DNA from: an uncultured bacterium
GTDB taxonomy: Bacteria; Bacillota; Clostridia; Christensenellales; UBA1242
Assembly (NCBI GenBank): GCA_949474265.1
Contig: CASXBC010000001.1
Location: 20,216-84,215, forward strand
Length of the DNA: 64,000 bases
Direction of reading: 5' to 3'
Made by a program: the position numbers and the translations under genes. The notes under the pieces were generated by a model. It was given only the letters and a program-made list of their open reading frames with translations. It had not been told where the DNA came from and ran no database searches. Positions 45,236 to 50,606 of this stretch are shown one piece after another. Positions within the stretch are counted from its first letter, which is position 1. Each line of letters starts with the position of its first letter.

Positions 45236-45749
45236 TTTTGAACATTAAAATTGTTATTAAATTATAAGCATTGATACTTAAATTAGATTGATGTAATAAA
45301 AAATATTGTAAAATAATTTCACTTTTATCTTTTTGATGATGTGAAATTTTTATATAATCTATATGCTAACAAACAATTTGTTTTATAATAGAAATATGAA
45401 AAAGTTAAAGTTTTTAAAGCAAAGCCGGAACATAAAGATTGATTGTTAAAAGCAAATATGATTATTCATGAAATAATTAAAATAGTGAGGCGAGACTACT
45501 TGCAGAGATGTTTGAAAGGGGTTGTTTTTTTGAAGAGGCTGAGTTTCGTTTTTGACTTTACCATAGTGCAAAGCAATGATAAAATCAAACCTTTTGTTCT
45601 TTGTTGGGATTTTTAAGAGGTTTATTTCTTCAAAAAAGAGATTTTACATAATTTAAAGATTGATTAATAACAGCTTTTGATGCTTTTGTAAGCTTGTTTT
45701 TATTTGGGATTTCTTGGTGGCTGTGATAAAATAAAAAAGAGGCATTATT

Positions 45750-46231
45750 ATGAATTTTATAGATTATGAGCCAAGATATAAGGATGCAATCTTTGAATTG
45801 GAAGCAAAACAATGGGGTGCTGGGTCTGATTCGGATGATATTATGCAGAATTTAGAAAAATATAATATTAAACTGATTGAAAACAACGGGGGGGGATTTG
45901 TGGATGTGCCATTTGGCATGTACAAGATGCTAAAGTTTGTTTTATTGACATGGTCTTGCTTGCCCCAGAAATTCAGCATCAAGGATATGGCAGTAAGTTG
46001 ATGAAAATAATAATTGACTTTGCAATTGCTGAAAAATGTCAAACTGTCGAATGCGAAGCTATTGATTGTTTGGGAAAGACTAATATAGAAAATCTATTAA
46101 ACAAATTTAATTTTGTTGAAAAGTATAAAGTAGAGAATTATTGGGGAAAGAGTTGCCCAGACTTTCATTGTAAAGAATGTGGACAGTGTCCTTGTGTTTG
46201 TTCCATGAGAAAATTTGTTAAGGTTTTATAA
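45750..46231 (+). pseudogene. GNAT-family acetyltransferase with Cys-rich tail, frame-shifted at a G8 tract (G9 would give an intact 160-aa ORF)
   Basis: Track ORFs 45750-46001 and 45950-46231 are two frames of one gene. G8 lies at 45888-45895. The downstream frame opens at 45881 and reads ...GGICGCAIWHVQDAKVCFIDMVLLAPEIQHQGYGSKLM (GNAT motif A). Confidence 0.75.
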
Positions 46232-46757: not shown

Positions 46758-47081
46758 ATGAAAGTTTACAATAAGTTGGTTAGAGATAGAATTCCAGAGA
46801 TAATTGAAAGAAATAATGAAGTTTGTCACACAAGAGTATTGACGGAAGAAGAATATCTGATTGAATTAAACAAAAAACTTCAAGAAGAGATGATTGAGTA
46901 TTTGCAGTCAGGAGAAGTTGAAGAGCTTGCTGATTTGGAAGAGGTTTTGAGAGCTATTCTTGATGTAAAGAAAGTTTTGTATAGTGATTTTGAAAAAATC
47001 AGAAACGAAAAGGTTGAAAAAAGAGGTGCATTCAAAAAGAAGATTTTTCTAGAAAATGTTGACGAAAAAGGCTTTAAATAA
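46758..47081 (+). CDS. MazG-like / PRA-PH-like all-alpha NTP pyrophosphohydrolase (COG4997-type)
   Basis: MKVYNKLVRDRIPEII... and EELADLEEVL acidic metal-binding helix; 107 aa. Confidence 0.7.
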   Translation: MKVYNKLVRDRIPEIIERNNEVCHTRVLTEEEYLIELNKKLQEEMIEYLQSGEVEELADLEEVLRAILDVKKVLYSDFEKIRNEKVEKRGAFKKKIFLENVDEKGFK

Positions 47082-47115: not shown

Positions 47116-47765
47116 ATGAAAACAATAAAAACAATTGATTTATGGACAGAACGAAAAGAAAACCATTATGAGTGTTTTAATGGAGCTTTTGTGGACGGCT
47201 TTGAAAATGGGGGGGGATTCCGTTTGAAAGTTTTAAAGTTGTCAAAAATTGCAACTGCAGAATAAGTTGCGACAAAGAGAATTTCAACATTTCAAATAAG
47301 CACAATGCAATTATTTTTTATAAAAGAAATGAGCCTGTTAGATTGCTTGTTGCAAATCAAAAAACAGATATTGAAAAATGTGTGGAAATTGCATTAAATC
47401 AGTTGTTTGAGGGAGCACCACTTTCAAAGTTGTTTAAGAGAAATAATATAGAAATGACATATTTAGATTTGAAAGAAAAACCTGTTTTCAACAATGCAGA
47501 CAAGTCAAAAGAAATTGATGTTGGCTCATGTGACAGGTGGAATTTGCTTTATAATATGCTAAAGGGAAGTTATACTGAAAGCCAAACAAATTATGGAAAT
47601 TTTGGCAGCTCTAAATATGAATTTATACCAGAGATTTCAATAGAATACAATTTGAAAATCGAAGATGAAATCTTTTGCATTAAGCACTCTTGTGCGTTTG
47701 TAAATGATATAGAAACAAGACTTATTCCAATTCAAGATTTTTCTAAGTTGACAGAAATGAGTTAG
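47116..47765 (+). pseudogene. Hypothetical gene frame-shifted at a second G8 tract (G9 would give an intact 216-aa ORF)
   Basis: The ATG at 47116 reads MKTIKTIDLWTERKENHYECFNGAFVDGFENGGG and stops 16 codons after G8 (47209-47216). The +1 frame is open from the tract to 47765 (IPFESFKVVKNCNC...), continuous with track ORF 47343-47765. Confidence 0.65.
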
Positions 47766-48034: not shown

Positions 48035-49237
48035 ATGAATTTTTTTAAAAAGCTTTATTGCAGAACCTATCAAAGTACGTTTAGGTTGATGTTGCCAATT
48101 TTGCCATACAGACAACCAAATGCTTTGAGAAACAACGAAGAGATTGTTGATGTCCTTAGTGAGAATAATGTTGAGAGTGTGATTTTGGTTACTGACAAAG
48201 GGATTCGTGGGCTTGGACTTACCAATGCTCTAGAGAAAGCAATAACAGACAGTGGAATTAAACTTTCAGTTTATGATAAGACTGTTGCAAATCCAACAAC
48301 TGAAAATGTCGAGGAAGCGGTTGACCTTTACAAGAAGAAAGGTTGTCAAGCGATTATTGCTTTTGGTGGTGGAAGTGCTATGGACTGTGCAAAAGCAACA
48401 GGTGCAAGGATTGCAAGACCTAAAAAGCCTCTTAGCAAAATGAAAGGTGTTTTGAAAGTTGGCAAAAAATTGCCATTGCTAATTGCAATTCCAACAACAG
48501 CAGGCACAGGCAGTGAGACTACTCTTGCAGCAGTGATAACTGACAGCGAGACCAGACATAAATATGCTATAAATGACTTTCCACTTATCCCACGCTATGC
48601 AGCACTTATGAGCGAGCTTACAGTAGGACTTCCAAAGTCTATTACTGCGACAACAGGTATGGATGCTCTTACTCATGCCATTGAAGCTTATATTGGAAGA
48701 AGCACCACAAAAGAAACCAGAAGGCGTGCTCTTTTTGCGGTTAAGACAATTTTTGAAAATATTGAAACCGCTTACAATGATGGACAAAACATTCAAGCGA
48801 GAGAAAATATGTTGCAAGCATCTTATTCTGCAGGACTTGCATTTACGGTTTCGTATGTTGGCTATGTGCATGCAGTTGCTCATTCTCTTGGTGGAAAATA
48901 TAATGTCCCTCATGGACTTGCCAATGCAATCATTCTTCCTTATGTTCTTAAGAGATATGGAAAAAAGATTTATAAGAAGCTTTGGAAAATGGGCGTGTAC
49001 TCTGGTCTTTTTGACAAGGAGACCTCCTATGAAAATGGGGCAAAATTGTTTATTGAAAAGATTGAAACTTTGAACAAAAATATGAATATAGGCACTCAAA
49101 TTGCAGAGATAAAAGAAGAGGACATCCCTGCTCTCGCAAAGACGGCAGAGAAAGAAGGAAATCCACTTTACCCTGTGCCTGTGCTTTGGACTGCGAAACA
49201 ACTTGAAGAGATTTATAGAGAGGTGAAAAATGGATAA
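48035..49237 (+). CDS. Iron-containing (group III) alcohol dehydrogenase
   Basis: 400 aa. GGGS(A)MDCAK and the His-rich metal-site region HAVAHSLGG...HG are typical of the Fe-ADH family. AAGGAGG RBS. Confidence 0.88.
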   Translation: MNFFKKLYCRTYQSTFRLMLPILPYRQPNALRNNEEIVDVLSENNVESVILVTDKGIRGLGLTNALEKAITDSGIKLSVYDKTVANPTTENVEEAVDLYKKKGCQAIIAFGGGSAMDCAKATGARIARPKKPLSKMKGVLKVGKKLPLLIAIPTTAGTGSETTLAAVITDSETRHKYAINDFPLIPRYAALMSELTVGLPKSITATTGMDALTHAIEAYIGRSTTKETRRRALFAVKTIFENIETAYNDGQNIQARENMLQASYSAGLAFTVSYVGYVHAVAHSLGGKYNVPHGLANAIILPYVLKRYGKKIYKKLWKMGVYSGLFDKETSYENGAKLFIEKIETLNKNMNIGTQIAEIKEEDIPALAKTAEKEGNPLYPVPVLWTAKQLEEIYREVKNG

Positions 49238-50606
49238 GGATTATATTTTATCATGTTTTGAAAAACAAAAAAAAGGTTTGAAAGAAAACCCTCTTCGCTT
49301 TTATAAAAACAGAATCACAGCTTTAAAGACTCTTCAAAAAAACATCAAACTTATGGAAGATGAAATTTGTGAAGCTTTGAAAAAAGATTTAAACAAAAGC
49401 AAGACAGAGAGCTATATGTCAGAAATTGGGCTTGTGCAAAGCGAGATTTCATACATGATTAGGCATTGCAAAAAGTTTGCAAAACCAAAACGTGTGATGA
49501 CACCAATATCTCAATTTGTATCAAAATCTTATAAGCTTGCTTGCCCTTATGGAGTTGTGCTTATTATCAGCCCATGGAATTATCCTTTTATGCTTTCAAT
49601 TGAACCGCTTGTGGATGCAATTGCAGCAGGCAACTGTGTTGTGCTTAAACCAAGTGCGACATCATCCAATGTTTGTGAAGTGATTTCAAAACTGATTGAA
49701 AAAACTTTTCCACCAGAGCAAGTCGTTGTGGTGCAAGGAGGAAGAGAACAAAGTTCGTTTCTTTTGGAGTTGGACTTTGACCACATCTTTTTCACAGGCA
49801 GCATGAGAGTAGGAAAAGAAGTTTTGGAGAAAGCGTCTCAAAACTTTATTCCTGTCACACTTGAGCTTGGTGGAAAAAGCCCTTGTATTGTGGATGAGAC
49901 AGCAAATCTTGCTTTGGCAGCAAAGAGAATTGTCTTTGGAAAATTTTTAAACTGCGGTCAAACTTGTGTTGCTCCTGATTATCTTTATTGCTCAAGCAAG
50001 ATAAAGGACAAGCTTATCAAAGAGATTGAAAAGCAAATTGTTTTGCAATACACAGACAATGCTATTGAAAATGAAAACTATCCAAAGCTGATAAATCAAA
50101 GACAGTTTGATTCGGTTAAAAAACTTATTAAAGCTGATAATGTCTTGTTTGGCGGAAAGTATGATGAGGAGAAACTTAAGATTGAGCCAACAATACTCAA
50201 TTCAAATTTTGATGCAGAAGATATGGAAGAAGAGATTTTTGGACCCGTGCTTCCTGTCGTGACTTTTGATAGTCTTGATGAAGCGATTGATAAAGTAAAT
50301 TCTTTGAAAAAACCGCTTGCACTTTATATCTTTTCATCGTCTAAGAAAAACCAAAACAGAGTTGTTGGGTTGTGTGATTTTGGCGGAGGATGTGTCAATG
50401 ACACCATCATTCATCTTGCAACTTCAAACATGGGATTTGGTGGTCTGAAATCGAGTGGAATGGGTGCTTATCATGGAAAGGTAGGCTTTGATACTTTTTC
50501 ACACTACAAAAGCATAGTTGATAAAAAAACATGGATTGATTTGCCAATGCGTTATCAACCACACACAAAAATGAAATATAAACTTATAAAATGGTTTTTG
50601 AAATAG
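49230..50606 (+). CDS. NAD(P)-dependent aldehyde dehydrogenase, class-3-like (fatty/aromatic aldehyde type)
   Basis: ELGGKSP and catalytic Cys in GQTCVAPDY; 458 aa; 8-nt overlap with the ADH gene. Confidence 0.88.
   Translation: MDKDYILSCFEKQKKGLKENPLRFYKNRITALKTLQKNIKLMEDEICEALKKDLNKSKTESYMSEIGLVQSEISYMIRHCKKFAKPKRVMTPISQFVSKSYKLACPYGVVLIISPWNYPFMLSIEPLVDAIAAGNCVVLKPSATSSNVCEVISKLIEKTFPPEQVVVVQGGREQSSFLLELDFDHIFFTGSMRVGKEVLEKASQNFIPVTLELGGKSPCIVDETANLALAAKRIVFGKFLNCGQTCVAPDYLYCSSKIKDKLIKEIEKQIVLQYTDNAIENENYPKLINQRQFDSVKKLIKADNVLFGGKYDEEKLKIEPTILNSNFDAEDMEEEIFGPVLPVVTFDSLDEAIDKVNSLKKPLALYIFSSSKKNQNRVVGLCDFGGGCVNDTIIHLATSNMGFGGLKSSGMGAYHGKVGFDTFSHYKSIVDKKTWIDLPMRYQPHTKMKYKLIKWFLK

Follow-up and report, generated by a model that had tools for sequence, protein, structure and literature searches.

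A poly-G tract that probably acts as a slippage-driven ON/OFF switch in a GNAT acetyltransferase gene of an uncultured gut Clostridia bacterium

Within the window (the whole 64-kb stretch of DNA analyzed here), a gene for a GNAT-type acetyltransferase is thrown out of frame by a run of eight Gs, and comparison with other assemblies makes it likely that this run is a hypermutable contingency tract, that is, a slippage-driven ON/OFF switch in a maintained gene. The finding that carries this reading is that otherwise identical clones, compared over 5.6 kb, differ solely in the number of Gs at this site, which upholds the assignment of the tract to the slipped-strand contingency type made in an earlier note on this DNA. 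A poly-G contingency locus is in itself of a known kind; the lineage is one for which the literature searched holds no earlier description.

The tract lies in the sequence aaactgattgaaaacaacGGGGGGGGattt (positions 45860-45899). As the earlier note had it, the G8 breaks the reading frame of the gene. Two ORFs result: an upstream one of 83 aa, which contains KLIENNGGGFVDV, ends in ...IENNGGGFVDV...AVS and terminates out of frame at 46001, and a downstream one of 93 aa, whose frame is -1 with respect to the first. One G more (G9) or two fewer (G6) fuses both frames into a single 160-aa protein, and the G9 reading, which the note had predicted to restore the gene, matches the Pfam family Acetyltransf_1. 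The tract corresponds to codons 47-49 of the 160 and so falls in the gene's first third; gain or loss of one G shifts the reading frame. It is also one of the two longest G runs of the window, as stated before, since only two runs of at least 7 Gs occur there and both are G8. The features of the locus and of the related sites elsewhere in the genome are listed in Table 1.

Table 1. Positions of the GNAT locus, its neighbors and other tract-bearing sites (C-numbers, contigs of the genome; other positions, window)
Feature	Position	Strand	State or evidence
Promoter-like site, TTGGGA / 17 nt / TAAAAT, TG before the -10	45704..45732	+	Consensus scan, 9/12 matches; putative function
Shine-Dalgarno-like AAGAGG, 7 nt ahead of ATG 45750	45737..45742	+	Sequence
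GNAT codons 1-46, MNFIDYEPRY...KLIENN, 5' of the tract	45750..45887	+	Identical or nearly so in 20/20 other assemblies
Poly-G tract (C1:66103-66110 of the genome)	45888..45895	+	G8, predicted OFF here; G9, predicted ON; G7-G11 in other assemblies
OFF product, 83 aa, without acetyl-CoA-binding motif A	45750..46001	+	Same product (P0012) called on 9 contigs
Downstream ORF, 93 aa	45950..46231	+	-1 frame relative to the 83-aa ORF
GNAT residues 50-160 and stop; motif A QHQGYGS, strands beta3-beta7	45896..46231	+	-1 frame relative to the start
Cx2Cx4CxC motif (C141, C144, C149, C151)	46169..46201	+	Alignment; putative metal binding
GNAT stop codon TAA	46229-46231		
107-aa gene	46758..47081		Whole in the window
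A run in the 107-aa gene	~46866-46877		
Second-tract gene	47116-47765		Broken into ORFs 47116..47265 (49 aa) and 47343..47765 (140 aa)
Second poly-G tract, 1.3 kb downstream	47209..47216	+	G8, predicted OFF; splits a 216-aa hypothetical protein
Aldehyde dehydrogenase ORF	49230..50606		
A8 run in the aldehyde dehydrogenase ORF	49267-49274		In frame
NUDIX	C1:5527		C8, predicted OFF
NUDIX	C13:13132		G8, predicted OFF
NUDIX	C1:138407		9, predicted OFF
HD-domain	C2:14221		G10, predicted OFF
HD-domain	C5:7593		Tract present, no ON/OFF call
MBL-fold hydrolase	C8:9897		G8, predicted OFF
ATP-grasp	C11:13025		C10, predicted OFF
PNPOx-like	C20:8304		G9, predicted OFF
Gene without named family	C46:128		G8, predicted OFF
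tmk	C1:130496 (130496-130504)		G9, predicted ON
Alpha/beta hydrolase	C2:104783		G9, predicted ON
Ser_hydrolase	C18:5635		G9, predicted ON
SDR (GAGGGIG loop)	C19:13066		G9, predicted ON
607-aa ORF	C12:21846		C9, predicted ON
TTGATA-N9-G(8-11)-TATACT promoter tracts (outside the window)	C36:2954-2961, C31:1865-1873, C17:17330-17338, C45:1971-1980, C21:14702-14712		
TTGATA-N9-G(8-11)-TATACT promoter tracts, remainder (outside the window)	C1:150117-150126, C13:29998-30008, C22:18-27, C29:8255-8265		

We judged the switch by comparing independent public assemblies, whose contigs were fetched via the 90%-identity protein clusters holding the two ORF pieces and whose tracts were then read on the DNA. 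The clusters contained 16 distinct products. Among them were the intact 167-aa proteins P0005 and P0007, encoded by at least 10 contigs, as well as fragments read in each of the wrong frames. The comparison with other strains, which the earlier note had proposed as a check, gave tracts from G7 to G11 in the 20 other assemblies: G7 in one (L022), G8 in eight (L011-L017 and L023), G9 in seven (L006-L010, L018, and L019), G10 in three (L001, L020, and L021), and G11 in one (L024). The seven G9 assemblies encode intact P0005 or P0007 and carry the ON alleles; the 13 others, together with the window, carry OFF alleles.

The differences in tract length turned out to separate clones that are otherwise alike. 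Assemblies L007 (G9, JGI 3300006147) and L023 (G8, JGI 3300006145) have no substitution in 5,599 nt, the tract being their sole difference, and the same holds over the same length for L001 (G10) and L006 (G9). The G11 contig (L024, 710 bp) has no substitution over about 708 nt relative to the L001/L006 clone; these three assemblies represent three samples of a single ENA study. One substitution in 3,585 nt separates L022 (G7) from L018 (G9). A/T runs of at least 7 nt, of which there are 8 to 10 per stretch, were unchanged between the pairs that differ in the tract.

Under the mechanism that we infer from these alleles, slipped-strand mispairing at replication would add or remove Gs. At G9, three Gly codons would form the turn of the beta2-beta3 hairpin and the full enzyme of 160 or 167 aa, presumably an active one, would be made. 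At G7, G8, G10, or G11, translation would stop after 59 to 84 residues, before the acetyl-CoA-binding motif, and the gene would be OFF. A population would then hold ON and OFF subclones for the GNAT enzyme, heritable and presumably reversible, arising at some presumed rate within a lineage and perhaps of adaptive benefit. Counting against such a switch, the GNAT protein is a cytoplasmic enzyme, whereas contingency genes typically encode surface or restriction-modification proteins, and mutL and mutS are intact, unlike in Campylobacter and Helicobacter.

We then considered whether the gene could be a fixed pseudogene, a former switch or a mere mutational hotspot, permanently off in the window's lineage and on its way to loss through genome reduction. 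We regard this as unlikely, even though the window's clone itself offers some grounds for it. All 8 of 8 assemblies of that clone, some of which share runs or studies, are G8: L012-L017 have no substitution relative to the window in up to 5.4 kb, and L011 has four in 5.4 kb. Judged by the assembled sequences, OFF is thus the majority state of this clone, as reproduced among assemblies, a uniformity that a selected or locked OFF state would explain no less well than a switch. The pseudogene reading also draws on the small genome (1.1 Mb at 97.8% completeness), on the OFF state of about 11 of the roughly 16 intragenic tracts by the longest-ORF criterion, and on the absence of the GNAT gene from 38 of the 40 other species of the genus sampled. 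Against it, a second lesion was found nowhere in the gene: the downstream frame was free of extra stops and indels in 21 of 21 versions of the gene. Uniform G8 accompanied by decay of the downstream frame, the outcome that the earlier note had named as fatal to a switch, is therefore not what was found. Between the two lineages, moreover, the gene diverges by about 1.7%, versus about 4.6% for its 5-kb surroundings. Finally, slippage by one added G is enough to restore the gene, and exactly such changes were seen in sister clones.

The second poly-G tract of the window bears on the same question. L012-L015 share the window's G8 at this site, whereas L011 has G9 and an unbroken gene of 216 aa, so that G8 tracts do change within the window's clone. 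In the sister lineage the site reads GGCGAG and the gene is intact, at 214 aa; the second tract therefore arose, recently, in the window's lineage. A side observation is that its context, GAAAAT-G8-ATT (E-N-G-G-G-I), mirrors that of the GNAT tract, GAAAACAAC-G8-ATT, and that of the tract at C8:9897, GAAAAC-G8-ATTTG.

Further observations support the view, at the level of sequence, that the GNAT gene is real and selectively maintained: the pN/pS ratio was about 0.2 to 0.3, a value derived from only 8 to 12 substitutions per pair, and the promoter-like and Shine-Dalgarno-like sites of Table 1 precede the gene. As to the stop codon, the window's lineage has TAA, most sister-lineage sequences have CAA, and L020 has TAG; CAA in place of TAA gives a 7-residue extension and hence a protein of 167 instead of 160 aa. 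The gene is rare within the genus: outside this species it was found in one other, where it is 32% identical and has no tract.

An assembly or sequencing artefact, with a true tract of G9 everywhere and its length miscalled, is a still less probable explanation of the G8. Poly-G is error prone on Illumina, and several of the comparison contigs have a coverage of only 4 to 11x, as taken from the contig names. Against this, G8 recurs in the eight assemblies of the window's clone from at least three pipelines (ENA, JGI, Logan, and NCBI MAGs), a reproducibility that argues against random miscalling, and other G9 tracts of the same genome were called in frame (those of tmk, the alpha/beta hydrolase, and the 607-aa ORF). 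The deviations include shorter as well as longer tracts (G7 to G11), and A/T runs of similar length are constant between the same contigs, so that the generic homopolymer miscalling doubted in the earlier note is indeed improbable. The control offered there, an in-frame A9 run in the aldehyde dehydrogenase gene, holds as to the frame but not as to the length, the run being A8. Nor could errors produce the surplus of long G/C runs seen across the genome. A uniform G9, the other refuting outcome named in the earlier note, was likewise not borne out at the level of assemblies.

Recoding by RNA polymerase slippage or by ribosomes that shift by -1 at G GGG GGA, by which a G8 gene would be dimmed rather than off, possibly on top of a DNA switch, is highly improbable: a -1 shift there would yield exactly ...NNGGGICGC..., and other bacteria are known to show transcriptional slippage at homopolymers, but the 80 nt 3' of the tract fold no better than shuffled sequences (z = -0.14) and thus offer no stimulatory structure, GGG-type slippery sites are poor shifters, and the observed variation in DNA length suffices to explain both ON and OFF.

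The protein encoded by the ON form is, by its sequence and its predicted structure, a genuine member of the GNAT superfamily. The G9 reading matched Acetyltransf_1 (PF00583) with an E value of 1.7e-9 and a score of 38.4 bits, the cut-off being 20.7, and the natural ON allele also has Pfam hits on record. AlphaFold2 modelled P0005, a natural G9 allele, with a pLDDT of 93.7, and Foldseek with this model retrieved many GNAT structures (E values of 2e-9 to 1e-7, TM about 0.7). The beta4/alpha3 motif A that the earlier note had recognized in the G9 frame (Q/R-x-x-G-x-G/A) is present as QHQGYGS at residues 76-82. The nearest folds are those of RimI/Ard1-type N-alpha-acetyltransferases (PDB 5isv, 2cnm, and 4pv6) and of the Elizabethkingia GNAT 6ao7, with TM scores of 0.70 to 0.73, identities of 12 to 19% and, unlike the protein studied here, no Cx2Cx4CxC tail. 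No characterized close relative was found, the best PDB sequence match having an E value of 0.19. An identity as RimI (TIGR01575) is not supported: although it was the best NCBIfam match, the match was weak, at 21.4 bits versus an equivalog cut-off of 86.4.

Relatives of this GNAT protein are few, 85 at E<1e-3 among 1.8 billion representatives. In an alignment of 26 family members, C144, C149, and C151 were invariant and C141 was kept in at least 90%. The Cys-rich tail, which had been thought unusual, is accordingly not a peculiarity of this protein; the Cx2Cx4CxC motif is the hallmark of a small GNAT subfamily. It is probably a metal-binding knuckle, and neither a solved structure nor a named family having such a GNAT tail was found. 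The GGG encoded by the tract is, by comparison with 25 homologues, a one-residue insertion specific to the window's species. In the P0005 model it falls in a hairpin loop, at the turn between the strands of residues 39-44 and 50-59. A species-specific insertion of one residue in a hairpin loop is what would be expected of an acquired switch.

The GNAT tract has many counterparts in its genome (1.11 Mb in 52 contigs, 34.5% GC, 97.8% complete). The lengths of G/C runs are bimodally distributed, with 200 runs of length 5 and 8, 2, 8, 18, 5, and 4 runs of lengths 6 to 11, respectively. Thirty-five runs of at least 8 were observed, versus about 1 expected from the decay of lengths 2 to 5 and 3 to 5 in fourth-order Markov simulations, while lengths 6 and 7 were depleted and long A/T runs strongly so. 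Such a bimodal distribution is the signature of genomes that keep poly-G/C contingency tracts. About 15 of the 35 tracts lie within -35/-10 promoter spacers, and about 16 to 18 are intragenic, mostly in genes for small cytoplasmic enzymes (three NUDIX, two HD, GNAT, MBL-fold, ATP-grasp, and hydrolases).

The putative states of the intragenic tracts were assigned by the longest-ORF criterion and by Pfam searches with the pieces as they stand. The tracts assigned as OFF have lengths of 8, 9, or 10, and the corresponding ON lengths would be 9, 8, or 10, depending on the gene, so that miscalls would not all run the same way. Other tract-bearing genes were compared through the lengths of the members of their protein clusters, which served as a proxy. 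Three of them, the genes for the alpha/beta hydrolase, the Ser_hydrolase, and the SDR, have truncated or alternative-frame products in other assemblies, starting at the tract (P0111, P0112, P0115, P0121, P0124, and P0117). A separate observation concerns the essential gene tmk, whose in-frame G9 is confined to the window's lineage: the encoded sequence is ALRGGE there and ALREGE in all other strains, which indicates that a single A-to-G change made the G9. The use of tmk as a never-varying control was abandoned, as the other strains have REGE, not RGGE.

Among the promoter tracts, nine share the architecture TTGATA-N9-G(8-11)-TATACT, in which the spacer grows from 17 nt at G8 to 20 nt at G11, the optimal 17 nt being reached at G8 only. 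Downstream of these nine promoters are genes for giant surface proteins with signal peptides, of more than 600 to more than 1,600 aa and with Listeria-Bacteroides-type repeats, many of them located at contig ends. TTGACA-type promoters with a C9 precede the genes for two paralogous proteins of 325 to 328 aa and a radical-SAM-like gene, and other tract promoters lie ahead of genes for an SDR, a lipoprotein, and a membrane protein resembling glycosyltransferases. Promoter-spacer phase variation is familiar from the poly-G of porA and the poly-C of opc in Neisseria meningitidis. The nine promoters resemble those of Neisseria in that the tract length sets the -35/-10 spacing, whereas the GNAT tract is translational. 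Among the 41 genomes of the genus sampled, the nine-copy architecture was found in this species only. When JGI metagenome contigs were scanned for the motif of these promoter tracts, three matches were obtained, and the one inspected (L036) appeared unrelated. An exact scan of such contigs, a set that excludes records close to the window's genome, for the flank of the GNAT tract followed by G7 gave no match.

The number of overlapping G8 hits per genome ranged from 0 to 75 across 41 species of the genus with similar genome sizes, and was highest in the window's genome. Loss of mismatch repair was considered as a cause and rejected, since both mutL and mutS are present: mutL occurs in 40 of the 41 genomes of the genus, this one included, and in 32 of the 32 of high quality, while mutS, broken only by a contig end, adjoins mutL in the window's genome. 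Campylobacter is not known to have mismatch repair of the MutS/MutL type; Neisseria and Haemophilus phase-vary with mismatch repair present. Also rejected was an alternative genetic code in which TGA is read as Trp, as in the JGI gene calls on L023, where several products are lengthened, since TGA closes 51 open frames of at least 300 codons. The range of tract loads among sister species, taken together with the new tracts (E to G in tmk and the second tract in place of GGCGAG), suggests a recent, lineage-specific gain.

The closest parallel among known systems is the "phasome" of poly-G contingency genes in Campylobacter jejuni and C. coli (PMC6321876, PMC8355987, PMC8437040). As there, G/C homopolymers of about 8 to 11 nt occur within and between genes, tens of them in a small AT-rich genome, the reading frame sets ON or OFF, and tract length varies among otherwise identical isolates. 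The targets in Campylobacter are mostly genes for surface-glycan modification, flagella, and restriction-modification, whereas here many are small cytoplasmic enzymes (GNAT, NUDIX, HD); and, unlike Campylobacter, the host here is an uncultured gut member of the Clostridia, of Gram-positive type, that has mutS and mutL. Helicobacter canadensis and H. pylori have been described as having some 29 coding regions per genome associated with tracts, which are of both the translational and the promoter kind (PMC2823697, PMC2715451). Both kinds are found here too, but in another phylum and in other sets of genes, and the switching of C-terminal sequences was not seen in the tracts studied here. Simple sequence repeats have likewise been surveyed in Neisseria meningitidis (PMC5084427). 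For a gut commensal, a pilus of Bifidobacterium breve is switched ON and OFF by slippage at an intragenic poly-G, and ON variants are selected in vivo (PMC9187656). B. breve is, however, an actinobacterium with two such pilus loci only, compared with about 35 tracts here and an enzyme as the product of the gene in question. In the full-text literature searched, the Bifidobacterium case was the only example among commensals, and no description was found for the present lineage.

On the broader question of what the GNAT tract belongs to, we hold the chances to be evenly balanced that it is one switch of a dense poly-G/C phasome, with about 35 tracts per 1.1 Mb and thus a density at least that of Campylobacter, which would have evolved independently in an uncultured, presumably Christensenellales-like genus of genome-reduced gut Clostridia that keeps MutS and MutL. 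Such a system would randomize giant surface proteins together with house-cleaning and modifying enzymes (three NUDIX, two HD, GNAT, MBL-fold, and ATP-grasp). If this is true, it would amount to bet-hedging in metabolism or in the nucleotide pool, beyond antigenic variation alone, with phage or toxic metabolites as the threats that it perhaps meets. Taken as a single locus, the GNAT switch is of moderate interest, and the genome-wide system is the more interesting lead.

Phase variation by slippage is a textbook matter for a few pathogens and scarcely documented in the anaerobic Clostridia that dominate gut communities. The GNAT locus offers a clean case, verifiable in metagenomes, that leads to a system extending over the whole genome and including enzyme genes. 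Since switched genes are annotated in MAGs as pseudogenes or split ORFs, gene-content and metabolic inferences drawn from such genomes would be systematically off. The ON or OFF state could be read from existing metagenomes, and one could ask what in the host selects each.

A smaller point concerns the islet in which the GNAT gene lies. No Pfam or NCBIfam family was matched by its neighbors, a 147-aa membrane protein and the 107- and 216-aa proteins. The gene for the 107-aa protein shows a further homopolymer frameshift polymorphism, in this case in an A run: it is whole in the window and in L007, L008, L018, and L020, and an A6/A7 difference splits it into pieces of 46 and 63 aa in L001 and L006, which belong to one clone.
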